Source: an uncultured Candidatus Saccharibacteria bacterium | Lineage (GTDB): Bacteria > Patescibacteriota > Minisyncoccia > Phycocordibacterales > GWA1-40-21 | Reading direction: 5' to 3' | Length of the DNA: 41,118 nt | Assembly (NCBI GenBank): GCA_964583845.1 | Contig: CAZOXG010000002.1 | Span: 1 to 41,118 of the forward strand | In this document: positions 2,660 to 32,947 of the stretch, piece after piece | Position numbering within the stretch: position 1 is the first letter of the stretch | Layout of the letters: every line of letters starts with the position of its first letter | Position numbers and translations under genes: made by a program | The notes under the pieces: model-generated | What the model was told of the DNA's origin: nothing | Databases searched by the model: none | What the model saw: only the letters and a program-made list of their open reading frames with translations

Positions 2660-2832
2660 CGCGGGAAGCAACCTCTGGGAGAGGTTGCGTGAGGACTTGA
2701 AAGGCGGAGCAAATTTTTGATAGTAGTCAAAAATGCGAGCCGGGGTCGAGAAATTTTACGAGCGACGGCGAGTAAAATATTCGTGACCAAGTCCTCTCCT
2801 TAAAGTCGAGGGAAAGACTCCTCTCCCGCGCA
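2659..2832 (-). mobile_element. gene-3'-end-associated mini-element, copy A (type-1 core), behind tRNA-Leu(UAG)
   Basis: Minus-strand core is GTCACGAATATTTTAC-TCGCCGTCGCTC-GTAAAATTTCTCGACCCCGGCTCG-hairpin-CTCCGCCTTTCAAGTCCTC. Inverted tRNA 3'-end pieces at 2659-2665 and 2691-2701. Direct copies at 2788-2799 and 2818-2832. Confidence 0.8.
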
Positions 2833-5121: not shown

Positions 5122-5379
5122 GTGCCCAGGATGGGACTCGGTCAGGAATAATTTTCTTATCGACACAAGAAAATTTTCACGACCATTACATGGTCAGTAC
5201 ACCATTTTGGATATTTTATTTCGTTACACTCATAAAATATCTCACAAGGTCTTTCGGTTGGGTCCCTTACCCAATCCTCAACCTGCCTCGCGGCTGGGCA
5301 TTGCTATACCCAGACCCTCTGCCTAAGAAAAATCGGCAAAGGGTACGCTCCGCTTTTCGAGTTCCACCCTATCGGGCAC
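5122..5379 (+). mobile_element. mini-element copy D1 (composite/nested), outer copy behind tRNA-Leu(UAA)
   Basis: Left arm GTGCCCAGGATGGGACTCG matches the tRNA gene strand at 17/19. Then GTCAGGAATAATTTTCTT-ATCGACAC-AAGAAAATTTTCACGACC. A nested second core-like unit lies at about 5192-5245. Right arm is TTCGAGTTCCACCC-TAT-CGGGCAC. Confidence 0.7.
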
Positions 5380-5395
5380 ATACAAAAAAACAGCT

Positions 5396-5480
5396 TGGTG
5401 GACTCGGTCACAGGTTTTTGCTTGCTAGCAAAACCCGCGACCCCGACTCGGCCCGTCGGCCTCCGTCTTTCGAGTCCCAC
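5396..5480 (+). mobile_element. mini-element copy D2 (short type-1 core), inner copy behind tRNA-Leu(UAA)
   Basis: TGGTGGACTCG|GTCACAGGTTTTTGCTTGCTAGCAAAACCCGCGACCCCGACTCGGCCCGTCGGCCTCCGTCTT|TCGAGTCCCAC. Confidence 0.75.
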
Positions 5481-5481
5481 G

Positions 5482-5520
5482 ACCAAAACAAAAACGGCCA
5501 TAAGCCGTTTTTGTTTTGGT
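5482..5520. terminator. bidirectional terminator, overlaps the CCA end of tRNA-Leu(UAA)
   Basis: ACCAAAACAAAAACGGC-CATAA-GCCGTTTTTGTTTTGGT perfect palindrome. Confidence 0.7.
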
Positions 5521-5602
5521 GCCCGGGGTGGGACTCGAACCCGCACGGTGTTACCACCGAAAGATTTTAAGTCTTTTGCGTCTACCATTCCGCCACCCGG
5601 GC
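5517..5602 (-). tRNA. tRNA-Leu (anticodon UAA), type II, CCA encoded
   Basis: Acceptor GCCCGGG/CCCGGGC, anticodon stem AAAGA/TCTTT, loop CTTAAAA, T loop TTCGAGT, 3' ACCA. Confidence 0.92.
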
Positions 5603-5618
5603 GAATATATTTTTGGCC

Positions 5619-5743
5619 TTGAGGCCTGTGCAGAATGGTCAGGAATATTTTGTTCGCCGGCGCTCACAAAATTTCACGACCCTGGCTCGGCCCGGCTGAT
5701 TGCTATCAGCCGACTTCGTGGCCTCTGCCTTTCGATTCTGCCC
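5619..5743 (+). mobile_element. mini-element copy B (type-1 core), behind tRNA-Cys
   Basis: Left arm TTGAGGCCTGTGCAGAATG versus tRNA gene strand TTGAGGCCTAGGGCAGAATCG. Core is GTCAGGAATATTTTGT-TCGCCGGCGCTC-ACAAAATTTCACGACCCTGGCTCGGCC-CGGCTGAT/ATCAGCCG-..GGCCTCTGCCTT. Right arm TTCGATTCTGCCC. Confidence 0.8.
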
Positions 5744-5767: not shown

Positions 5768-5770
5768 TTG

Positions 5771-5842
5771 AGGCCTAGGGCAGAATCGAACTGCCGTATA
5801 GAGATTTTGCAGATCTCTGCCTTACCACTTGGCTACTAGGCC
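5771..5842 (-). tRNA. tRNA-Cys (anticodon GCA), discriminator U, no CCA
   Basis: Acceptor GGCCTAG/CTAGGCC, anticodon loop CTGCAAA, T arm GGCAG-TTCGATT-CTGCC. Confidence 0.92.
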
Positions 5843-6317: not shown

Positions 6318-7823
6318 TTATTTTTCTATTAGTCTGACGGAAATAATTTTGTCACCCGGTGCTACTTCTATATTGGCTTGTAACATACAACCGAATTCCA
6401 CACCGCCACGAACTTCATTGGTCTTAACTTTTTGTTGCTGAAGCTCCTTTATTTTGCCAGCACCAATTTTTACATCCTGACGCATTATTTTTACATCATC
6501 TCCAACATTTAGTAAACCTTCCTCAGCTCGTCCGCCTAAAACATATTTGTCTTTAACACTACTGAAAACTTTAAGTATTTTTGCTCGGCCAGCTTCTTCT
6601 TCAACTTGTATCTTTGGGGTAATGGCCAAAGCTTTTTCTGCCAACCACTCAGTCAGTTTGTAAATAATATCAAAAGTTTTAATTTCTACACCGTCTCGTT
6701 CCGCCAAGTGTTTGGCTTGGGTATCTATTTTTGTATCAAATCCCACCAAGAGTGTGCCAACCTTGCTAGCCGTCAGTTTTACATCGCCTTCAGTGATATC
6801 ACCAATGGTAGCTGAAATAATGTGTATTTTAACTCGGTCGTTTTTAATTTTGGCCATCTCATGAGCGATACCTTCAAGAGCTCCAACATTTTGAGCTTTG
6901 ATCACTACTTGAAGCAGTGCTTGATTCTCTAGTAATTCATCGGTTACCATACAGTTGTTGCTCACTCGTGTCTCTTTGAATGAAGTGGTAAATTCCTCAG
7001 CTTCTTTTTTTGTACTAACGGTTGTAAACGGTGTTCCAACTTTAGGTTGTATGTTAAAACCAATAACACGAACTGGAGAAGAAAAAGTGACATCAGTAAT
7101 TTTTTTACCTTTAAAATCTTCCATCATTCTGGTGGTGGCCCAGGCGTCACCGCAAACAACAAAGTCACCGCTGTGAATTGAACCGTCTTTAATTATAAGT
7201 GTCGCGGAGATACCTTTTTTACTATCCAAGGTGGCTTCGATGACCGCACCTTCAGCTACCCGTTCAGGATGGCCTTTAAGTTCCTCCATCTCAGCTACTA
7301 AAAGTAATAGGTTGAGTAGATCATCTACACCTTTACCAGTTTTGGCAGAAATTGGGACATAAGAAATATCACCACCCATACCTTCAAGGTAAATACCATT
7401 TTCTACTAAACTCATTTTTGTTCTCTCAATATCGGCACCAGGTTTGTCTATTTTGTTGATAGCTACAATGTAGGGAAGTTTACTAGCGACAATACAGTGC
7501 AAAGCTTCTAGTGTTTGTTTTTTAACACCGTCATCAGCTGAGACTACTAAAATGGCAATGTCGGCAACTTCAACTCCACGTGAGCGAATAGCTCCAAACG
7601 CCTCGTGCCCAGGGGTATCCAAGAAAGTAATTTTCTTTTCTTCACCGGCCAAATTTTGACGAACTACTTCATACGCCGAAATCTTCTGGGTAATACCACC
7701 AGCTTCAGAATCAACGATATTGGTCTTGCGAATATAGTCTAGTAGAGTGGATTTACCATGGTCAATGTGACCCATAATACAAACTACCGGCGGTCGCTCT
7801 TGTGTTATTTCTTCTTTAGTCAT
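6318..7823 (-). CDS. infB: translation initiation factor IF-2 (short form starting at the G domain)
   Basis: 501 aa. G motifs [17 protein letters not shown] and NKID, followed by the beta-barrel and C-terminal domains. Confidence 0.92.
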
Positions 7824-15082: not shown

Positions 15083-15199
15083 GGAAAGGATTTGGTCATG
15101 GATAATTCACTAGTCGTCTCTCGTGAATTTCCACGACCCTGACTCGGCCACACTACCTGCTGGCAGTGGCTTCGCGGCCTCCGTCTTTCAAATCCTTCC
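15083..15199 (+). mobile_element. mini-element copy E (type-1 core), behind tRNA-Tyr
   Basis: GGAAAGGATTTG|GTCATGGATAATTCAC-TAGTCGTCTCTC-GTGAATTTCCACGACCCTGACTCGGCC-hairpin-GCGGCCTCCGTCTT|TCAAATCCTTCC. Confidence 0.8.
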
Positions 15200-15205
15200 T
15201 TGAGC

Positions 15206-15275
15206 AAAATTGGTTTCTTAACCAATTTTACAAAAGAAAAACACCAGTTTAATAATAAACCGGTGTTTTCTTTTG
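15206..15275. terminator. two consecutive AT-rich hairpins between copy E and tRNA-Tyr
   Basis: AAAATTGGT-TTCTTA-ACCAATTTT, then GAAAAACACC..GGTGTTTTC flanked by A-run and T-run. Confidence 0.55.
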
Positions 15276-15359
15276 TGCGCAGGGAAGGATTTGAACCTTC
15301 GTAGTCCATTGGACGATTGATTTACAGTCAATTGCGATTGACCACTCCGCCACCTGCGC
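15276..15359 (-). tRNA. tRNA-Tyr (anticodon GUA), type II, no CCA
   Basis: Acceptor GCGCAGG/CCTGCGC, anticodon loop CTGTAAA, long variable arm, T arm GAAGG-TTCAAAT-CCTTC. Confidence 0.92.
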
Positions 15360-19297: not shown

Positions 19298-19338
19298 AAG
19301 ATTCATAATACCCGTCGTCACAGCTGAAGCATGTAAAC

Positions 19339-19462
19339 ATCAGATTCGGTCACGACTTTTTCTTTCGCCGTCGCTCAAGAAAAGTCTCGACCCTAGCTCA
19401 GCATTACTCGCTGGAGCTCGTAATAAGCTTGCGCTTTTCGAATCTGAGTGGGCCCGCATATT
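19339..19462 (+). mobile_element. mini-element copy F (type-1 core), behind tRNA-Trp
   Basis: CATCAGATTCG|GTCACGACTTTTTCTT-TCGCCGTCGCTC-AAGAAAAGTCTCGACCCTAGCTCAG-hairpin-CTTGCGCTTT|TCGAATCTGAGTGGGCCCGCATATT. The 26-nt right arm is a perfect inverted copy of the tRNA 3' half. Confidence 0.85.
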
Positions 19463-19489
19463 AAAAAAACTGCTTATTAGTAGTTTTTT
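19463..19489. terminator. AT-only hairpin at the centre of the 26-nt inverted repeat
   Basis: AAAAAACT/AGTTTTTT stem. The flanking arms extend the palindrome to 19437-19515. Confidence 0.6.
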
Positions 19490-19495
19490 AATATG

Positions 19496-19567
19496 CGGGC
19501 CCACTCAGATTCGAACTGAGAACCTCGCGTTTGGAGTGCGATGTTTTACCATTGAAACTATGGACCC
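19496..19567 (-). tRNA. tRNA-Trp (anticodon CCA), no encoded CCA end
   Basis: Acceptor GGGTCCA/TGGGCCC, anticodon stem TCGCA/CGCGA (imperfect), loop CTCCAAA, T arm CTCAG-TTCGAAT-CTGAG. Confidence 0.9.
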
Positions 19568-19608
19568 AAGCGCACTTATCTTATAATAAATAAGACCATT
19601 ACGCAAAT

Positions 19609-20265
19609 TTAGATTTTTTTGAGAAATGTCTTTCCGACACTAATACCAACGACCGAACCCATGATAGCACCAGCGACAGCATCAGAAACCCAGTGTATAT
19701 TACTAACTGAAACTCCTAGGCCTATATATGTGGCATATACCAAAGCACTGATTATCAATATTTTATTTTTAGGCCACAGAGTTATTAAAGTAAAAGCCAT
19801 GGCAAAGGCAATCATAGTGTGTGAGGATGGCCAACCCCAAAATATACCGTTTTGAAAAAAACCAAAATTAAAGGTGTTGTGGAGATCAAAAAAAATGTTG
19901 AAGGATTGAGGTGGCGGAGTTCTTCCGGTCACAGCTTTATAGAGAGAAGATAAAGCCCAGGCTAAAATAGCTGATTGACCCAAAGCAAAAGCCAAGTTTT
20001 TTAAATTTAAGGATTTACGAGTTCGAGCAAAAACCAGGAGGATTAAAGGAACGATTATTGGTAATAGAGCCCCTAGTAATACTGATCCGAAGAAAAAATA
20101 ATAAATATTAGGAGATTTATAGAGTTCATAAAATTTATAATCACCATCGACGTAAACTATTATTGCCGTAAAAAGAACACCGATGATCTGTATTAATAAA
20201 TAGTAGCCAGTGAATAAACGTAAAAGACTCTTTTGAAATTTATAGAATAAGTTCGAAAAAAACAT
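19609..20265 (-). CDS. PAP2-superfamily membrane phosphatase
   Basis: 218 aa, multi-TM. Motifs KAVTGRTPP, PSSH and SVSNIHWVSDAVAG approximate the PAP2 signature KX6RP / PSGH / SRX5HX3D. Confidence 0.6.
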   Translation of the reverse strand: MFFSNLFYKFQKSLLRLFTGYYLLIQIIGVLFTAIIVYVDGDYKFYELYKSPNIYYFFFGSVLLGALLPIIVPLILLVFARTRKSLNLKNLAFALGQSAILAWALSSLYKAVTGRTPPPQSFNIFFDLHNTFNFGFFQNGIFWGWPSSHTMIAFAMAFTLITLWPKNKILIISALVYATYIGLGVSVSNIHWVSDAVAGAIMGSVVGISVGKTFLKKI

Positions 20266-20272
20266 GGGTAAA

Positions 20273-21169
20273 TTATAGCATGAACTGGTCTATGGTTTTA
20301 ATTATTTCTTTTTTATCCTCAAGTTTAAACCATTTGATGCGATTGTCTCTTTTGAACCAGGTTCTCTGGCGTTTGGCAAAATGCCAAATTGCCATACAGA
20401 GCTCGTTAATCATTTGTTCATGAGTAATTTTTTTTTGCAAATATAAGGCAAGATATCGATATTCCAAACCAAAGTTTTCTAGTCTCTTCCAAGTGACACT
20501 TTGGCTGTGAAGTTTAGAGACTTCTTTGAGCATTCCATTGTCTAGACGTTTAATTAAACGCTTATGTATTCTGTCTTTCAGTATTTCATCATTGGCATCT
20601 AAGCCAAGTTGTAGAGAATTATATTTGATGTCTTTTTTGATTGGTGGTACGAAACCTAGAGTTTTGGCAATCTCAATCGCTCGAACGATTCTGACTCGAT
20701 TATTTTTGTCTATTCGGTTAAAAGTGTTTTTATCGAGTTTTTCTAGTATAATTAATAGTTTATTTGTTGTAAGTTTTTCAAGTTTAACACGAAGTTTTTC
20801 ATCAGATTTAACTTCTGGAAAAATGACATTATCAACAATGGCTTGAATATAAAAACCAGTACCACCACAAATTATCGGCAGTTTGTCACGGCCGAGAATG
20901 TCGGCAATAATCCCATGAACTTCTTTTTGATACTTGGCGACATTATATTTAGTGTTTGGTTTTACAATATCCAACATGTAATGTTTGACACCCAACATTT
21001 CTTTCTTGGTTATTTTACCAGTACCTAAATCCATATCCTTAAAAACCTGACGGGAGTCGGCACTAATTATTTCGCCATTGAATCGCTGAGCAATTTCTAC
21101 GGCTAGATCACTCTTACCAGTAGCAGTTGGGCCGAGAATGACTAAGATTTTTGGAAGTATATTTTTCAT
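20273..21169 (-). CDS. miaA: tRNA dimethylallyltransferase
   Basis: P-loop GPTATGKS, SADSRQVFKDMDLGTGK, and overall MiaA length. Confidence 0.9.
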   Translation of the reverse strand: MKNILPKILVILGPTATGKSDLAVEIAQRFNGEIISADSRQVFKDMDLGTGKITKKEMLGVKHYMLDIVKPNTKYNVAKYQKEVHGIIADILGRDKLPIICGGTGFYIQAIVDNVIFPEVKSDEKLRVKLEKLTTNKLLIILEKLDKNTFNRIDKNNRVRIVRAIEIAKTLGFVPPIKKDIKYNSLQLGLDANDEILKDRIHKRLIKRLDNGMLKEVSKLHSQSVTWKRLENFGLEYRYLALYLQKKITHEQMINELCMAIWHFAKRQRTWFKRDNRIKWFKLEDKKEIIKTIDQFML

Positions 21170-21486
21170 TACATTTCAAGAAAAATAATACTAGTTAAGC
21201 CGATAACGATGCCAACAATATTCAAAGCTGATAATTCTTCTTTATAAAAGAAAACTCCAACTAGAATACCAACTATAAGAGTTAAAACTGCAAAAATTAC
21301 CATAGCCTTGGATAGACTTTGATATTTAAGTGAGAATGCCCAGAAAAGTGTAGCAGCTGTATAGGCGAGTATGCCCAAAACCAACATGTAGTTTTTGTTG
21401 TGTATAGACCATTCTTTGAAAAGAATGTCACCGATGACTTCCAGAAAAGCTACGGCAGTAACTAGATAGATGAAGTATTGATTCAT
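21169..21486 (-). CDS. small 4-TM membrane protein, SMR/DMT-like
   Basis: 105 aa with four hydrophobic helices and an acidic residue in TM1 (AFLEVIGD). Its stop overlaps the miaA start. Confidence 0.45.
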   Translation of the reverse strand: MNQYFIYLVTAVAFLEVIGDILFKEWSIHNKNYMLVLGILAYTAATLFWAFSLKYQSLSKAMVIFAVLTLIVGILVGVFFYKEELSALNIVGIVIGLTSIIFLEM

Positions 21487-21598
21487 TATGAAGTGATTCT
21501 AGCAGATTTGGGGATGGGGTCAAATAATTAAAAGTTTTTTGAGTTTTTCTCCCGAGTAAGAGGTGTTGGAAGAGAGATTGCCCGAAAATATTAAAATA

Positions 21599-21728
21599 TG
21601 CCGAGAGCGAGACCCGGTTACGAATATTTTTCTTGTTGTCACAAGAAAAATTTCTCGACCCCGGCTCGGCCACTCTCTCTGGTGATAGTGGCTTTGCGGC
21701 CTCCGCCTTTCGAGTCTCTCTCCCGGCA
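21599..21728 (+). mobile_element. mini-element copy G1 (type-1 core), outer copy behind tRNA-Leu(CAA)
   Basis: TGCCGAGAGCGAGACCCG|GTTACGAATATTTTTCTTGT-TGTC-ACAAGAAAAATTTCTCGACCCCGGCTCGGCC-CCACT..AGTGG-CTTTGCGGCCTCCGCCTT|TCGAGTCTCTCTCCCGGCA. Confidence 0.85.
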
Positions 21729-21736
21729 AATACAAG

Positions 21737-21858
21737 TGCCGGATAGAGGACTCGCCCGCACCTCTCGTTTCGCCGTCGCTCAACTCGGTTTGGGCACCGC
21801 CTCACATTTTTGACTACTGTCAAAAATAGGTTCCGGCGTTCGAGTCTCTCTCCCGGCA
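21737..21858 (+). mobile_element. mini-element copy G2 (type-2 core), inner copy behind tRNA-Leu(CAA)
   Basis: TGCCGGATAGAGGACTCG|CCCGCACCTCTCGTTTCGCCGTCGCTCAACTCGGTTTGGGCACCGCCTCA-CATTTTTGACTACTGTCAAAAAT-AGGTTCCGGCGT|TCGAGTCTCTCTCCCGGCA. Confidence 0.8.
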
Positions 21859-21898
21859 CAAAAGAAAAACACTGGAATATTCCAGTGTTTTTCTTTTG
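21859..21898. terminator. bidirectional terminator between copy G2 and tRNA-Leu(CAA)
   Basis: CAAAAGAAAAACACTGG-AATATT-CCAGTGTTTTTCTTTTG perfect palindrome. Confidence 0.75.
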
Positions 21899-21981
21899 TG
21901 CCGGGAGAGAGACTCGAACTCTCACAGTGTTGCCACCGGTGGATTTTGAGTCCACTGCGTCTGCCATTCCGCCATCCCGGC
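21899..21981 (-). tRNA. tRNA-Leu (anticodon CAA), type II, no CCA
   Basis: Acceptor GCCGGGA/TCCCGGC, anticodon stem GTGGA/TCCAC, loop CTCAAAA, T arm GAGAG-TTCGAGT-CTCTC. Confidence 0.92.
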
Positions 21982-22039
21982 AAAAATTACATCTTTAAGA
22001 TTATCAGTTTTATCAAAAAAAGCAATATGGTAAAAATTG

Positions 22040-26291: not shown

Positions 26292-26372
26292 TTGTTGGTC
26301 TCCTTAGAATTGTTTGTCGTGCAGAAGAATTGCCTTCTGCTAATCCAAAAACACTATAACATTTTTTATTAG

Positions 26373-26424
26373 AAATGGCAAATTAAAACCCCACACCAGG
26401 ACTTCCGAAGGGAAGTGAGTTGGT
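26373..26424 (-). repeat. 52-bp direct repeat, copy 1 (terminator hairpin plus -35 box)
   Basis: AAATGGCAAATTAAAACCCCACACCAGGACTTCCGAAGGGAAGTGAGTTGGT. 49/52 identical to 28199-28250. On the minus strand: hairpin ACTTCC-CTTC-GGAAGT, then GGGGTTTTAATTTGCCA. Confidence 0.85.
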
Positions 26425-26446: not shown

Positions 26447-28123
26447 TTATTTTCCTGGAGAAAAAGCCTGATCAAAATCAATTAAATATAACCTAGGAAA
26501 ACGATTAAAATCTGGTTTACCATTTTCATTTCTAAAAAATCTTAGACAAAAGTTGCCATCGTGAGGGTGACCATGTTCAAAATTTATACTACTTAACACC
26601 GCCTTTATTTTATTTTTTTGTTCTTCAAGTTCAGATTCAAATTTAGTTGATATTTCTTTCCACCTAGCCAAACTAAGATCTAAGACTCCACTATACACCC
26701 TAATTGAACCATTCTTATTAATGCTAAATGATTGGATTGGTTCTATTGGAACGTAATCAAAACCAGCCTGCTGCCACAGTTTCCAATTCTCATATATAGA
26801 TTGCCACGATAGAAAAGCTTCTGGTGTAATTTCTCTTATTATCGTTTTGTCTTTTAAGTCACCACCAAGTAAAATAGTTTCTGAACCTGTCTTATCAAAA
26901 TTAGCTCGAGAGAATTTTTCTTTTCTTACTGCTCCATTTTTGTATAATGCTGGTTTAATCAAGTATTCTTCTAAACCTTTTTCCTTCATTAATTTATACA
27001 ACCCTTTCCTTTCATTTTTGGGAATATAGTCAATCATTCCAATTGATGAGGTTTGCACTTTAGGATCAACACTTTCTAAACTCTGTCTAATCCTTAGTAA
27101 AACATTCTTCCACAAGGAAGGCTTTTCCGGCTCAGAGACAAAATTAATGTTATCAACTGATAGTATTTGAATCTCTAGATTTGAATGAGACAAACCTTCC
27201 CTGATAAGACTAGCTCTCTCATTTACAGGAGCAAACCGAATATTTTCAGCCGATATTTTTTGTACTTCTGGGTTAGGGTGATTAAAACCGTCTTTAATAA
27301 GGAGTGTTATTTCATCTTTGGGAGCATCGCCCATCATTAAAGCTGATGTAATTTGAACTTCTGGATTTGAATGAGACAAACCTTCTCTAATAAGTGTTGA
27401 TCTTTCGTCTCCAAATGCTCTTTCAATTATTTTAACTGATTCCACCTGAACTTTTGGGTTAGGGTGTTTTAAACATTCTCTAATAAGATTAGCTATCATA
27501 TTTTCAGGAGCAAACCGAATATTTTCAGCCGATATTTTTTGTACTTCTGGATTAGAGTGATTTAAACCTTCTTCAATAAGCGATAATGTTTTAGTTACTG
27601 GAGCATTGTCCAATAATTTGGCCGATGTAATTTGAACTTCGGAGTCAGTACTATTTAATCCATTTTTGATTTTTTGTAAAACAATTTCTCGCAGAAAACC
27701 CTTTTGAGTTTTAGGTGCAAACCAAATAGTTTCAGACGAAATTATTTGTACTTCTGGGTTGAGATGACTTAGACCTTCTTCAATAAGTGGTGTTATCTCA
27801 TCTTCTGATATAAATTTAATAGCCTCGGCTGCTGCTTTTTGCACCTCAGGGTCAGAATTAGCTAAGCCTTCTTTAATAAGAAAGAATGTTTTTGAGTTAG
27901 GAGTGAATAGACTTTCATTAATTTCATGCACCAAAGGTGAAATTTTCTTCTCTTTATTTTTAGTAATAATTAAATCAATCTTCTCATTATTTCTAATTTT
28001 ATCCTCTTTGTATCTATCAAAACTATGTTCAGTTATCTGATTTTGCCCAGGAATTTCATACATTTTCAAATATTTTGGTAGTGGTGACTCAGGACTTTCA
28101 ATTTTTTGCACAGGTCTTTCCAT
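26447..28123 (-). CDS. HEAT-repeat protein (about 9 repeats of ~31 aa) with a C-terminal protein-kinase-like domain
   Basis: Repeats of EGLxHxNPEVQxxSAxxIxFAP. The C-terminus has HGHPHDGNFCL (catalytic-loop-like) and LYLIDFDQA (DFD). The ATG at 28123 is preferred (MERPVQ). Low G+C. Confidence 0.7.
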   Translation of the reverse strand: MERPVQKIESPESPLPKYLKMYEIPGQNQITEHSFDRYKEDKIRNNEKIDLIITKNKEKKISPLVHEINESLFTPNSKTFFLIKEGLANSDPEVQKAAAEAIKFISEDEITPLIEEGLSHLNPEVQIISSETIWFAPKTQKGFLREIVLQKIKNGLNSTDSEVQITSAKLLDNAPVTKTLSLIEEGLNHSNPEVQKISAENIRFAPENMIANLIRECLKHPNPKVQVESVKIIERAFGDERSTLIREGLSHSNPEVQITSALMMGDAPKDEITLLIKDGFNHPNPEVQKISAENIRFAPVNERASLIREGLSHSNLEIQILSVDNINFVSEPEKPSLWKNVLLRIRQSLESVDPKVQTSSIGMIDYIPKNERKGLYKLMKEKGLEEYLIKPALYKNGAVRKEKFSRANFDKTGSETILLGGDLKDKTIIREITPEAFLSWQSIYENWKLWQQAGFDYVPIEPIQSFSINKNGSIRVYSGVLDLSLARWKEISTKFESELEEQKNKIKAVLSSINFEHGHPHDGNFCLRFFRNENGKPDFNRFPRLYLIDFDQAFSPGK

Positions 28124-28198
28124 AGAAGAAATATAGCATAAAACTATATTAGTTTCGAATTTTGATAAAATATAAAAGTGTATATGGTAAGGCAATAA

Positions 28199-28250
28199 AA
28201 ATGGCAAATTAAAACCCCACACCAGGACTTCCGAGGGGAAGTGAACTGGT
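28199..28250 (-). repeat. 52-bp direct repeat, copy 2
   Basis: See 26373-26424. Lies 17 nt past the stop of 28268..28795 and supplies TTGCCA as the -35 box for the HEAT gene. Confidence 0.85.
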
Positions 28251-30100: not shown

Positions 30101-30307
30101 ATGTATACGGAAATGCCCAAACAGTCGTCTACTTTCATGGAACTAACAGTCTTCACTACCGGTTTTTTGGTCGGTATCTGGAGTCTGGGAATTGCTGAAC
30201 TGCGTTTCTGGGACACCGAAAGGCGTCGCGCCTTGTTCTATGTTTCCGTTACGGAACTTTACGGTCTTCAGGCCAGCATTCTATTTCTCGGTACCTACCA
30301 ACGGTAG
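30101..30307 (+). CDS. 68-aa single-TM protein
   Basis: AAGGAGA 7 nt before the ATG at 30101 (in frame within track ORF 30044..30307). TM is LTVFTTGFLVGIWSLGIA. Two terminator hairpins follow. Confidence 0.6.
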   Translation: MYTEMPKQSSTFMELTVFTTGFLVGIWSLGIAELRFWDTERRRALFYVSVTELYGLQASILFLGTYQR

Positions 30308-30371
30308 TGTACATCAAGCCATCCGGCTCATCGGTCCCTCAAGGATCGGAGCTGGGTGGTTTTTTAATTAA

Positions 30372-30409
30372 TACCGCCCGGCTCGCAAAGCGAGCCGGGC
30401 GGTATTTTA
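30372..30409 (+). terminator. intrinsic terminator (second of two)
   Basis: TACCGCCCGGCTCG-CAAAG-CGAGCCGGGCGGTA followed by TTTTA. A weaker hairpin plus T-run lies at about 30322-30365. Confidence 0.75.
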
Positions 30410-30411
30410 AT

Positions 30412-30495
30412 TTATTTTGTGTCTGCAACCTCAGCCAGTTTATGTGGATTATGATTAGGACAATTCTTATCACTACATCTATCTGGTATGGTCTT
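30412..30495 (-). pseudogene. displaced 3'-terminal fragment of topA (27 codons plus stop)
   Basis: Minus-strand translation is KTIPDRCSDKNCPNHNPHKLAEVADTK*. The first 20 aa are identical to the end of intact TopA, with 12/60 nt different and all differences synonymous. Confidence 0.8.
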
Positions 30496-30497
30496 TG

Positions 30498-30628
30498 GTC
30501 ACAAATATTTTCTCGCCGTCGCTCAAAAATTTTGCCGACCCCGGCTCAGTATTGCTCGTTGCTACTCGCAATATACTTCCGCCTCACAAAAACTAAAAAC
30601 AGACAGCGAAGACTGTCTGTTTCTTACA
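30498..30628 (+). mobile_element. mini-element copy H (type-1 core plus terminator), behind topA
   Basis: GTCACAAATATTTTC-TCGCCGTCGCTC-AAAAATTTTGCCGACCCCGGCTCAG-TATTGC..GCAATA-TACTTCCGCCTCAC, then the AAACAGACAG-6 nt-CTGTCTGTTT hairpin (30597-30622) directly before the topA stop. Confidence 0.85.
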
Positions 30629-32824
30629 TTAGTTTGTTAATTTATGCGGATTATGATTCGGACAATTCTTATCAGAACAGCGATCGGGAATAGTTTTTGT
30701 GCCAACCATCATCAACTCACCACATAACTTACATTTTTCTCCAGTTGGTTTAGTTTTGATTATATATTTGCAATCAGGATAATTTGAACAACTATAGAAA
30801 ATTCCAAATCGTCCACGCTTTTCAGTCATCATACCTTTTTTACACTTTGGACATTCAACACCAGTGGAGTTCAATCTCTCCATTTCTTTATCTTTTTTTA
30901 TAAACTTACATTTCGGATAATTACCACAAGCGATAAACTTACCAAATTTTCCTTCACGTTCAAACAAGTTTGATTTACCACATTGCGGGCAAAGTTCACC
31001 AGTATCTTTTGGTCCCGCAATTTCAATTCCGTCCATTTTAAGTGCTCCTTGACACTCTGGATATTTGGCGCAACTCAAAAACTTGCCAGTGCGTCCAAGC
31101 TTGATCACCATCGGTCCTTTACAAACTGGGCATTTAAATTCGGCACCTGCTTCACCAAGATTAGTAATTTTTTCTACTCCTTCTTTAGCCTTAACATCTG
31201 CTAAGAACGGGCCATAAAAATCCTTCAAAGTTTTGACGTATTGAGCTGTTCCGTTGGCAATATTGTCCAGTTTGTCTTCCATGTCGGCGGTAAAAGTATC
31301 ACTGATATATTTGCCAAAATTATCTTCCAAGAAAGTACTGACAGTCTCACCGGTGTCAGTTGGTTTGAGAGCTCTTTCTATTTTTTCAACATAACCACGA
31401 TCCTGAATCGTCTTAATAATAGAAGCATAAGTAGAAGGACGGCCAATACCTCTTTTTTCTAATTCTTTAATCAAACCCGCTTCAGTATAACGTGGTGGTG
31501 GTTCGGTACTTTTTTCCTGATCTTTAATTTCAATTAGTTTAAGAGTCTCACCAACAGTGATACTTGGTAGTTCTACATCTTCACCACGAGCCTGAGGGTC
31601 GGCGATTAACCAACCGTCAAAGATAACGCGGGACCCATTGGCGGTAAAATCTGGAATCTCACCAGTACCAATTTTTACAATTATTTTACTACGAGCGATT
31701 TTGGCATCAGTCATCTGAGAAGCCACAGTTCTTTGCCAAATCAATTTATAAAGTTTGGCTTGTTCAGGTGTAAAACGAGAACTAGTTTCTAAAGCAAAGT
31801 TAGTTGGACGGATGGCTTCGTGAGCTTCTTGGGCATTTTTACTTTTGGCAGCGAAAGTGCGAGGAGATAAATAATTTTCTCCATAGTTAGTTTTTATAGT
31901 TGCAAAGATTTTTTCTTGAGCTTCTTTGGAAAGGTTGGTACTGTCCGTACGCATATAACTGATGAAACCACCTTCGTAAAGTTTTTGAGCAATACTCATG
32001 GTTCGAGCCGGAGCAAAACCAAGACGGGAAGAAGCAGTTTGTTGCAAGGTGGAAGTGATGAATGGGGCTTTTGGTTGACGTTTAGCTTCGGTTTCATTTA
32101 GATCAGAAATCACCCAGGAATTTGTTTTGCCATAAGCAACAATACGTTTCATTTCTTCTTCGGTTTTTGGTTTTTCTTCACACTCTAAAGGCAAAGGTAA
32201 CTTTTTTGTGGTTTCAGTATCGGCAGTTATCACCCAATATTTTTCAGGAACAAATGCGCGAACTTCACGTTCGCGCTCTACAATAATACGTAGGGCTGGT
32301 GACTGAACACGTCCAGCGGATAGTCCGTAGCGAACTTTTTTCCAAATCAAACCAGAGAGATCGTAACCAACGAGACGATCTAAAACACGGCGAGCTTCTT
32401 GAGCTTGGCGTAAGTTCTCGTCAATTAAGCGTGGGTGAGTCAAAGCTTCTTCGATCGCGGATTTCGTGATTTCATGAAAAGCCACACGTTTTGGATTATG
32501 AAGACCAATAGCCTCCTTCAAATGCCAAGCAATTGCTTCACCTTCACGGTCGGGGTCAGTCGCAAGTAAAACTTCTTCTGCTTCACTAGAGAGTTTTTTT
32601 AATTCCGCGACCACTTTTTCTTTGCCCGGAGAAATTTCGTAAGTGGGAACGAAGCCTGCGGGAATATCAATCGCCTTTTTGTTACTTTTTGGTAAGTCAC
32701 GAATATGACCGATACTTGCCTTTACTATATAACCTTCACCGGCATATTTGGTTATTGTGTTGGCTTTGGCAGGGGACTCCACGATCAATAATTTAAAACT
32801 TTTTGGTGAACTTGTATTACTCAT
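30629..32824 (-). CDS. topA: DNA topoisomerase I with four C-terminal zinc ribbons
   Basis: Toprim start LLIVESPAKA, type IA core, and four CxxC..CxxC modules. The ATG at 32824 is preferred over the TTG at 32833. Confidence 0.93.
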   Translation of the reverse strand: MSNTSSPKSFKLLIVESPAKANTITKYAGEGYIVKASIGHIRDLPKSNKKAIDIPAGFVPTYEISPGKEKVVAELKKLSSEAEEVLLATDPDREGEAIAWHLKEAIGLHNPKRVAFHEITKSAIEEALTHPRLIDENLRQAQEARRVLDRLVGYDLSGLIWKKVRYGLSAGRVQSPALRIIVEREREVRAFVPEKYWVITADTETTKKLPLPLECEEKPKTEEEMKRIVAYGKTNSWVISDLNETEAKRQPKAPFITSTLQQTASSRLGFAPARTMSIAQKLYEGGFISYMRTDSTNLSKEAQEKIFATIKTNYGENYLSPRTFAAKSKNAQEAHEAIRPTNFALETSSRFTPEQAKLYKLIWQRTVASQMTDAKIARSKIIVKIGTGEIPDFTANGSRVIFDGWLIADPQARGEDVELPSITVGETLKLIEIKDQEKSTEPPPRYTEAGLIKELEKRGIGRPSTYASIIKTIQDRGYVEKIERALKPTDTGETVSTFLEDNFGKYISDTFTADMEDKLDNIANGTAQYVKTLKDFYGPFLADVKAKEGVEKITNLGEAGAEFKCPVCKGPMVIKLGRTGKFLSCAKYPECQGALKMDGIEIAGPKDTGELCPQCGKSNLFEREGKFGKFIACGNYPKCKFIKKDKEMERLNSTGVECPKCKKGMMTEKRGRFGIFYSCSNYPDCKYIIKTKPTGEKCKLCGELMMVGTKTIPDRCSDKNCPNHNPHKLTN

Positions 32825-32947
32825 TTCCAACAAGTATTACACGAAAATATCAAAACAGGCAAATTTTTGAAAAGTTTTGGTGAATAATTTTCGCACTTTT
32901 TTTAATAATATTGTATAATGAAACGGAAACTTATTGTTATTAAACTT

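Follow-up and report, generated by a model that had tools for sequence, protein, structure and literature searches.

A small gene-end-carrying insertion at topA and its relatives at tRNA and tmRNA genes of Patescibacteria

The topA locus and its two gene ends

The window examined here is the whole 41,118-nucleotide (nt) stretch of contig CAZOXG010000002.1 from an uncultured Candidatus Saccharibacteria bacterium, and our subject is the 3' end of its topA gene, where a structured element lies in antisense orientation between two versions of the final codons of the gene. The homologues of the window TopA protein are TopA sequences of Patescibacteria (Parcubacteria/Paceibacterota) and place the window in this group, and the motif GTKTIPE/DRCS.K.C..H.P.K is nearly invariant among its 120 best TopA matches. 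Two minus-strand segments, the in-use tail (G; 30638-30697) and a displaced tail (D; 30436-30495), are both translated to KTIPDRCSDKNCPNHNPHKL. As an earlier note on this DNA had stated, the frames and translations can be reproduced, and the differences between the two (12 of 60 nt, in nine codons) are purely synonymous, with the switches CGC/AGA, TCT/AGT and TTA/CTG within six-fold codon families among them. Past this shared stretch, G terminates as ..KLTN at a stop codon at 30629-30631, and D extends as ..KLAEVADTK to its own stop at 30412-30414.

The two tails are also recovered by a direct-repeat search of the window as a 59-nt pair with 83% identity and 202 nt spacing (repeat family D8), and this pair is not a product of chance because the same anatomy occurs in more than 30 further loci. 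The sequence between G and D consists of the topA terminator and a copy of a repeat that is present elsewhere in the window (Table 1). This repeat is the conserved core of the element, and its copy beside topA is called copy H. The core reported in the earlier note is confirmed, with a start at 30497 that is one base off the claimed 30498, and the terminator said to stand beside it after the topA stop is present as a hairpin. The note had also ascribed GC-richer, element-like codons to the in-use tail. This part did not stand, as there is no measurable difference between G and D in GC content (0.35 vs 0.33) or in GC content at third codon positions (0.25 vs 0.20, with 0.29 for the topA body).

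The core spans about 87 nt and the whole mobile unit about 190-230 nt, and no open reading frame (ORF) is found in the element, as had been noted. On the strand of the element, the order is the reverse complement of D, the core, a short target-matched stretch termed segment I, a hairpin and the reverse complement of G. A 128-amino-acid ORF at 30307-30693 on the plus strand covers D, the core and G on the opposite strand, and a 94-amino-acid gene is called at the same place in the relative L001. The 128-amino-acid ORF is almost certainly spurious. It was also rejected as a source of constraint on D, since the coordinates show that every third codon position of D falls on a first position of its frame.

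Both occupied and empty versions of the topA site exist in related genomes. The same insertion with the same synteny is present in L001 and L002, whose TopA is 98% identical to that of the window. L003 and L186 (77% TopA identity) lack the core, and their single tail leads through a terminator to the next gene. A second lineage provides an occupied site in L189 (TopA P0044) and an empty one in L187 (TopA P0020). In L187, relA begins 45 nt past the topA tail, and the downstream DNA is homologous to that past the displaced tail of L189. The insertion at L189 is a clean block of about 190 nt. Relatives that carry both tails without a core, which had been named as the sign of a duplication unrelated to the element, were not seen, as L003, L186 and L187 each have a single tail and no core.

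The second lineage also reveals the source of the tails. In L189 and L143 the in-use tail reads SNKTCEMHNPHKLGKLK and the displaced tail reads SVKTCPNHRPDKIAKIS, so that the two differ in protein sequence. The closest element-free relative, P0020 (92% identical over the body), ends in SVKTCPNHRPDKIGKIS, which is the displaced type. The in-use tail is therefore foreign, and the earlier proposal of a foreign replacement 3' end is borne out. In L184 (2244-2270), the topA gene of a 77% relative ends as ..KLVS and is followed by a terminator of the element-borne type (AACAGACAGTCTGCACTG), where the contig stops; this is probably another occupied site, one that broke the assembly.

Between the window and L001, the core and terminator have diverged by about 8% and topA by 10%, the latter with 196 synonymous and 16 non-synonymous codon differences in a mosaic distribution. 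This divergence (window 30629-32833 vs L001 3001-5196) is 0% in the first 150 nt and rises to as much as 17% mid-gene, which suggests homologous recombination between strains.

A pattern describing the core only was scanned over one genome per GTDB species, which gave at least 120 loci, nearly all in metagenome-assembled genomes of Patescibacteria. Among complete genomes of this group, CP066682.1 contains two or more copies. The core-only scan is unbiased for the topA feature, and it found the topA anatomy at 6 of 121 cores (the window type, L074, L092, L109, L143 and L181). In all six, the reverse complement of the displaced KTIPE... tail lies upstream of the GGTCA that opens the core, and the downstream side shows TCAC[A/C]AAAAC, then a hairpin and then the in-use tail in reverse complement. 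A second scan, of metagenomes and targeted at the topA subclass, yielded 39 loci, of which about 35 are at topA. The junction G-T^K-T-I-P (the caret marks the crossover) is common to all topA insertions, of which more than 30 are independent, always with the in-use tail beside the element and the displaced tail beyond it.

Codon differences were counted over 25 distinct, non-decayed G/D pairs with 19 conserved codons each. The totals of 179 synonymous and 54 non-synonymous differences fit the view, first drawn from the window alone, that both tails evolved as working topA ends. Drift of D after a local duplication would give a ratio of about 1:1 or worse, and is excluded by single pairs such as L181 (11:0), L206 (12:1) and L208 (10:0). 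The displaced tail is frameshifted or truncated in L074/L220, L092/L226, L109, L200, L213 and L228; displaced tails do decay with time.

Related cores and their targets

The 41-kb window contains nine copies of the family at seven different targets (Table 1). Its copies are convergent on six of seven tRNA genes, two of which carry tandem pairs (B1/B2 and G1/G2), and the newest member of each pair adjoins the gene, as in serial insertion. The tRNA 3' end with its trailer and the inverted copy in the element form perfect palindromes at 19437-19468/19484-19515 (32 nt) and at 21838-21878/21879-21919 (41 nt, no spacer).

The same preference is seen across genomes, where at 72 of the 121 cores a convergent tRNA gene has its 3' end less than 120 nt away and every kind of tRNA is represented. 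The displaced tRNA 3' end is identical to the live one at 18 or more of 22 positions in many loci. Overall, the family sits antisense at tRNA T-loops, tRNA 3' ends, tmRNA and topA; the claim that it reaches beyond tRNA targets is thus upheld by a recurrent protein-gene target as well as by tmRNA. The tmRNA gene of L086 (6879-7299; core at 7371-7456) was confirmed by ARAGORN, and the tmRNA 3' end is also a target in L107, L123 and L099, as assigned by sequence similarity. A scan of IMG/VR for the core gave 60 pattern matches, none of which fits the core profile and all of which are due to chance, and the family was not seen in these viral contigs.

Several variants of the core were encountered. 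An optional module of about 100 nt that starts ..ATGGTCAGTACACC... is found within the core at CGACC^CCGG (where the caret marks the module), both in copy B1 (5185-5283) and in L001 (5279-5376), with about 90% identity between the two. The module may represent a second, nested element or else an additional domain. A short motif related to it, GTGAGTACAC.TTC, separates the displaced tRNA end from GGTCA in L069, L083, L099, L156 and L168. A short-core variant with a short P1 and no P2 occurs at the tRNA 5' end in L169 (3216-3278, minus strand), L079 and L178; about 10 nt of the tRNA 5' end are duplicated on its segment I side, and a TAAAAT box lies beside the live tRNA.

Table 1. Features of the topA locus and copies of the element family in the window
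Feature	Position	Strand	Remarks
topA (type IA DNA topoisomerase I), target gene	30629..32833	(-)	734 amino acids; Pfam Toprim, Topoisom_bac, Zn_ribbon_Top1 x3
In-use, element-borne replacement tail G (KTIPDRCSDKNCPNHNPHKLTN, stop)	30629..30697	(-)	gives second half of last zinc ribbon; G-type codons same in L001
Crossover region in topA (ggCACAAAAACTA; Thr-Lys-Thr codons), complement of segment I	30691..30701	(-)	sequence reading; junction kept in more than 30 loci
Intrinsic topA terminator carried by the element	30595..30624	(-)	terminator-like hairpin; compensatory A-T to G-C change vs L001
Guide-like segment I (TCACAAAAACT), inverted sense-strand target copy across crossover, directly 3' of core	30584..30594	(+)	register fixed in tRNA class
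Conserved core, copy H	30497..30583	(+)	alignments A1, A2; covariation
Copy H, P1 hairpin	30497-30540	(+)	
Copy H, junction CCGGCTCAG	30541-30549	(+)	
Copy H, P2 hairpin	30550-30573	(+)	
Copy H, 3' strand TTCCGCC	30577-30583	(+)	P3: GGC pairs with GCC
Displaced native tail D (KTIPDRCSDKNCPNHNPHKLAEVADTK, stop)	30412..30496	(-)	abuts GGTCA end of core; equivalents in L001, L189, L181, others
Presumed original bidirectional topA terminator	30370..30406	n/a	strong hairpin, now downstream of D; kept in L001
Copy A core, convergent on tRNA-Leu(tag) 2546-2627	2703..2788	(-)	I at ~2661-2702 with hairpin insert
Copy B1 core, outer of tandem pair at tRNA-Leu(taa)	5140..5354	(+)	extra ~100-nt module
Copy B2 short core, inner of tandem pair	5406..5467	(+)	tRNA-Leu(taa) 5517-5602
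Copy C core, convergent on tRNA-Cys 5770-5842	5637..5729	(+)	
Copy E core, convergent on tRNA-Tyr 15275-15359	15094..15185	(+)	
Copy F core, convergent on tRNA-Trp 19495-19567	19348..19434	(+)	I 19435-19458; perfect 32-nt palindrome with tRNA 3' end
Copy G1 core, outer, at tRNA-Leu(caa) 21898-21981	21616..21707	(+)	perfect 41-nt palindrome
Degenerate copy G2, inner, at tRNA-Leu(caa) 21898-21981	~21753-21836		

Elsewhere in the window, an ORF with HEAT repeats (26447-28222) contains 93-nt in-frame tandem repeats (27134-27804), and a 55-nt repeat (26370-26424 and 28196-28250; 93% identical) lies on both sides of it.

Core fold and target-matched segment

On its own strand, the core reads GGTCA...P1...CGACCCCGRCTC...P2...CTCCGYC. 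The initial GGTC pairs with GACC at the foot of P1, whose stem is variable, and the joint CCYRRCTC is conserved. The P2 hairpin is again variable, and GYC of the final CTCCGYC pairs with RRC of the joint to form P3. Among 123 sequences, 86.9% of the cells are paired, compared with 66.3% in shuffles, and the covariation score is 0.521 vs 0.184 in shuffles, none of which (0 of 500) reaches 0.521; controls with slid pairings score 0.08-0.16. The P3 pair 67:134, whose positions had been left free in the search pattern for the core, is A-T in 62 sequences, G-C in 58 and another combination in three. Folding the locus as one DNA sequence gives a strong structure (z = -4.8) that does not reproduce the comparative one.

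These stems are more readily understood at the level of DNA, because G-U-type cells (about 27) are no commoner in them than A-C-type cells (about 39), no promoter-like site was found upstream of the core, which begins at the very end of the mobile unit, and no Rfam family matches. Specifically, only tRNAs pass the gathering score in Rfam 15, including its ribozymes, omega-RNAs and group I/II introns, and scans of 30380-30720 and 19300-22000 by E-value gave chance hairpin-type matches only.

Segment I is made of one spacer nt, 3 nt from the gene-body side of the crossover and then at least 6-20 nt from the tail side, for example T-TTC^GAWTCC... at T-loops, T-CAC^AAAAAC at topA and T-CGC^AC... 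at tRNA 3' ends. Its register is fixed: the junction is at position 4 of the segment in 29 of 32 well-preserved tRNA cases, in which the carried tRNA end measures 17-20 nt. In the topA class, segment I is separated from its complement by about 100 nt, and the A or C in TCAC[M]AAAAC agrees with the third base of the Thr codon at the live junction in 28 of 33 distinct loci. Segment I is not a terminator stem in this class, and in L189 it lies 6 nt past the stop. The segment has three potential pairing partners: the strand of an empty target, where the pairing spans the insertion point, then the left flank and the right end of the element itself. In a subclass of about 17 of the 120 elements (L076, L082, L086, L107, L117, L122, L123, L127 and others; alignment A2), the segment is TTTC-TCA-TC rather than TTTC-GAT-TC, which leaves the three bases beside the crossover unpaired.

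Proposed mechanism, known systems and alternatives

We consider it probable that the topA locus carries a non-autonomous mobile DNA element of about 190-230 nt that has no ORF, inserted antisense at the G-T^K-T-I-P codons together with a replacement gene end, and that it selects its target through pairing of segment I and moves as folded single-stranded DNA by means of an enzyme acting in trans. The mobile unit would consist, on its own strand, of the folded core, segment I, a terminator and, in reverse complement, a complete gene end as replacement, and would enter the chromosome where the matching sequence begins. The interrupted gene would then read into the element-borne tail and terminator and stay functional, with its native tail pushed to the far side of the core. 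Base pairing of segment I with the target strand would set the target, and the same pairing may hold the right end of the element. Target choice of this kind would explain how one core family serves dozens of targets. The mover would be encoded elsewhere and, by geometry, may be a transposase of the HUH/Y1 type or else a recombinase that needs only homology at the crossover. Seven targets in one 41-kb window argue against site recognition by protein only, and it is implausible that the enzymes of one genome would recognise about 20 tRNA identities as well as tmRNA and topA in this way.

The element can thus be described as a miniature, tail-carrying integrative element without ORFs, whose outcome is that of known integrative elements. 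The earlier description of 'site-specific integration' captures this outcome correctly, and its enzyme and chemistry are matters that we infer. More tentatively, the family may represent a programmable DNA insertion system of an undescribed kind. This would be a protein-less cassette of about 200 nt with a folded core, a guide of 9-22 nt across the insertion point and a carried gene end, moved by a trans-acting and possibly housekeeping enzyme for single-stranded DNA, and retargeted by a change of guide and tail alone. Full-text literature searches returned no description of the element family, only references to the systems used for comparison.

A number of results weigh against the proposed mobile element. 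No integrase or transposase is encoded in the 41-kb window, and no Y1 HUH transposase (TnpA) was found there or in the 8-kb loci of other genomes. When all ORFs near the 120 loci were clustered, no gene family proved to be enriched, the maximum being nine loci. We found no autonomous or cargo-bearing copy, and observed neither an excised or circular form nor a presence/absence polymorphism at the strain level. GC skew tracks gene orientation and so speaks neither for nor against a lagging-strand bias. The pair of similar subterminal hairpins known from IS200/IS605 has no counterpart in P1 and P2/P3, segment I may have been copied from the target in the course of insertion and be no guide at all, and the proposal gives no account of how a new tail is captured on a change of target.

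The behaviour of D in the window lineage is a further difficulty. D of the window (30412-30496) and D of L001 (5427-5508) differ in seven of their first 20 codons, always synonymously. Of the codons that differ between the two genomes in G, six of seven also differ in D, four of them with the same change (TGT/TGC, AAG/AAA, AAT/AAC and CAT/CAC in both copies; P ~0.001 by a hypergeometric estimate). This synonymous evolution of D in step with G is not predicted by a simple 'dead remnant' model. D of this lineage cannot be described simply as a relic in decay. The pattern could stem from gene conversion between the tails, from selection on D through repeated cycles of excision and re-insertion, or from heteroduplex repair when the element inserts.

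One protein cluster was encountered near the loci that is not housekeeping. It comprises a protein of about 220 amino acids with an N-terminal HTH_23 domain and a C-terminal part that has no Pfam or PDB match, encoded beside element-bearing tRNA genes in nine of 120 loci (L065 6634-7305, L083 2792-3451, L141 661-1326, L183 2443-3174 and five more) and without a counterpart in the window. The only long gap between core and target, 2.7 kb in L101, was considered as cargo and rejected, as it holds unrelated insertions of the IS3 type with DDE transposases.

By geometry, the closest known mechanism would be that of IS200/IS605 and its ORF-less derivatives. In this group, which we take together with PATEs and REP/RAYT, the target sequence that is read remains at the left flank, where it abuts the left end, the right end closes with a sequence that is read likewise, and no true target-site duplication is needed. 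The element resembles this layout at the sequence level, in that the reverse complement of D abuts GGTCA and the right end, the reverse complement of G, is the same sequence and can pair with segment I. Hairpin-rich ends are shared as well. In IS200/IS605 an internal guide selects the cleavage sites by base pairing, a choice that can be reprogrammed (PMC3201880, PMC5934647), and non-autonomous copies are mobilised in trans (PMC3333891). However, the guide pairing here extends over 9-22 nt, compared with 4 nt in that group, one guide would act at both ends, and an entire gene end travels with the element. The two similar subterminal palindromes with 4-nt guides 5' of their feet are also lacking, as P1 and P2/P3 differ in sequence and position and the guide is 3' of the core.

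Other small repeats offer a looser parallel. Miniature inverted-repeat transposable elements (MITEs), Rickettsia palindromic elements and Correia/REPIN repeats are likewise small, ORF-less, multi-copy and hairpin-forming, and some enter genes without killing them. The present family is instead site-specific, lacks constant terminal inverted repeats and a short fixed target duplication, and carries gene ends of 17-75 nt. Its flanking repeats are derived from the target, measure 10-75 nt and differ between copies.

The alternative that survives best, although we regard it as unlikely, holds that the elements are miniature remnants or satellites of tyrosine-integrase islands, similar to cis-mobilizable elements (CIME-like). 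The core would then act as an attP arm that offers protein-binding sites, each target would be read through protein-DNA contacts by integrases whose genes lie elsewhere, and segment I would be part of a bidirectional terminator. The T-loop and 3'-end sublocations are known for integrases, and were reportedly recognised by Williams in 2002. Synonymous differences between the carried and the displaced end have been described for insertions in icd and are also seen here, as are the tandem arrays that islands form at one tRNA gene. Islands and prophages (Islander-type islands, phage 21/e14 in icd and dusA islands) likewise use tRNA T-loops or 3' ends, tmRNA and conserved protein-gene ends, where the target gene is split and restored by the gene-end copy of the element. 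A displaced target fragment marks the far end (PMC4383910), and the regenerated target with such a fragment at tRNA, tmRNA or protein-gene ends is their hallmark (PMC4383910; PMC4482086), which is found at the present loci.

The second defining trait of the Islander type, an integrase gene inside the element, is absent, since about 200 nt here hold no integrase or any ORF, and no integrase is enriched near the 120 loci. Moreover, a single folded core serves dozens of targets, even in one genome, so that many separate specificities would be needed for the tRNA identities, tmRNA and topA. The core is defined by covariation of stems with variable sequence and not by conserved arm-type repeats for protein binding, and an inverted copy of the target stands beside it in fixed register. 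In the topA class, this copy pairs with a junction about 100 nt away and is not a terminator.

We also think it improbable that the system operates through RNA. In such a case, the core would be a scaffold RNA with segment I as its guide, in the style of the IS110 bridge RNA, the TnpB omega-RNA or the exon- and intron-binding sites (EBS/IBS) of group II introns, and would serve a recombinase, nuclease or reverse transcriptase; alternatively, the core would be a ribozyme. The layout of a structured conserved scaffold, a variable target-matched segment in fixed register and a terminator is what such systems would show. Group II introns pair across their insertion point through IBS1/2^IBS3, and the long arm plus 3-nt arm of segment I is similar. 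Nevertheless, the lack of a G-U excess, of a promoter-like site ahead of a core that starts at the end of the mobile unit, of an Rfam match and of any associated ORF all count against an RNA.

The logic of the element may resemble that of IS110 bridge RNAs and group II introns even so. IS110/IS1111 elements with their bridge RNA (seekRNA) combine a programmable, pairing-defined target with a conserved structured non-coding part and insert in conserved or repeated sequences. They differ in carrying no replacement gene end. Here there is no ORF for a DEDD/serine recombinase, no RNA with two internal loops for target and donor and no promoter, and Watson-Crick covariation runs through uninterrupted stems. 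Group II (and group I) introns insert in the strand that pairs with their guide, which has a long arm and about 3 nt across the insertion point. The present element is antisense to its host gene, so that splicing cannot rescue the gene and the carried tail does so instead, and neither intron domains (by Rfam) nor a reverse transcriptase are present.

A third alternative is that nothing moved, and that the end of topA was duplicated locally around a resident gene for a regulatory or antisense RNA, with gene conversion keeping the copies alike. The changes of G and D in step between the window and L001 would suit this view, as would three loci (L198, L204 and L225) in which G and D are equal at the nucleotide level over 19 codons and differ beyond. 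We judge it very unlikely, because the pairs of occupied and empty sites largely refute it, G and D of L189 match different natural TopA lineages, synonymous differences are in such excess, and the same core stands at dozens of unrelated targets. Finally, a diversity-generating retroelement, with the tails as template and variable repeat, would place two near-identical 3'-end copies in and just downstream of a gene and a hairpin after it, but this reading was rejected as scarcely credible on the substitution pattern, in which only six of 12 differences involve A in D (the others involve G, C or T) and all 12 are synonymous, the opposite of diversification, and no reverse transcriptase is encoded in the window.

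If the proposed mobile element is real, the ultra-small genomes of Patescibacteria are peppered with a tiny selfish element that survives by rebuilding the essential genes it interrupts. Such elements would break assemblies at tRNA genes and yield spurious ORF calls such as the one at 30307-30693, and the resulting chimeric TopA C-termini would confuse phylogeny. At topA, foreign sequence would overwrite part of the last zinc ribbon, so that a vehicle of only 200 nt would have passed a segment of protein horizontally. At T-loops, tRNA ends, tmRNA and topA alike, one core is accompanied by a target-matched segment whose register is fixed. This points to site choice defined by pairing and, if this is true, the family would offer a compact natural template for programmable insertion.

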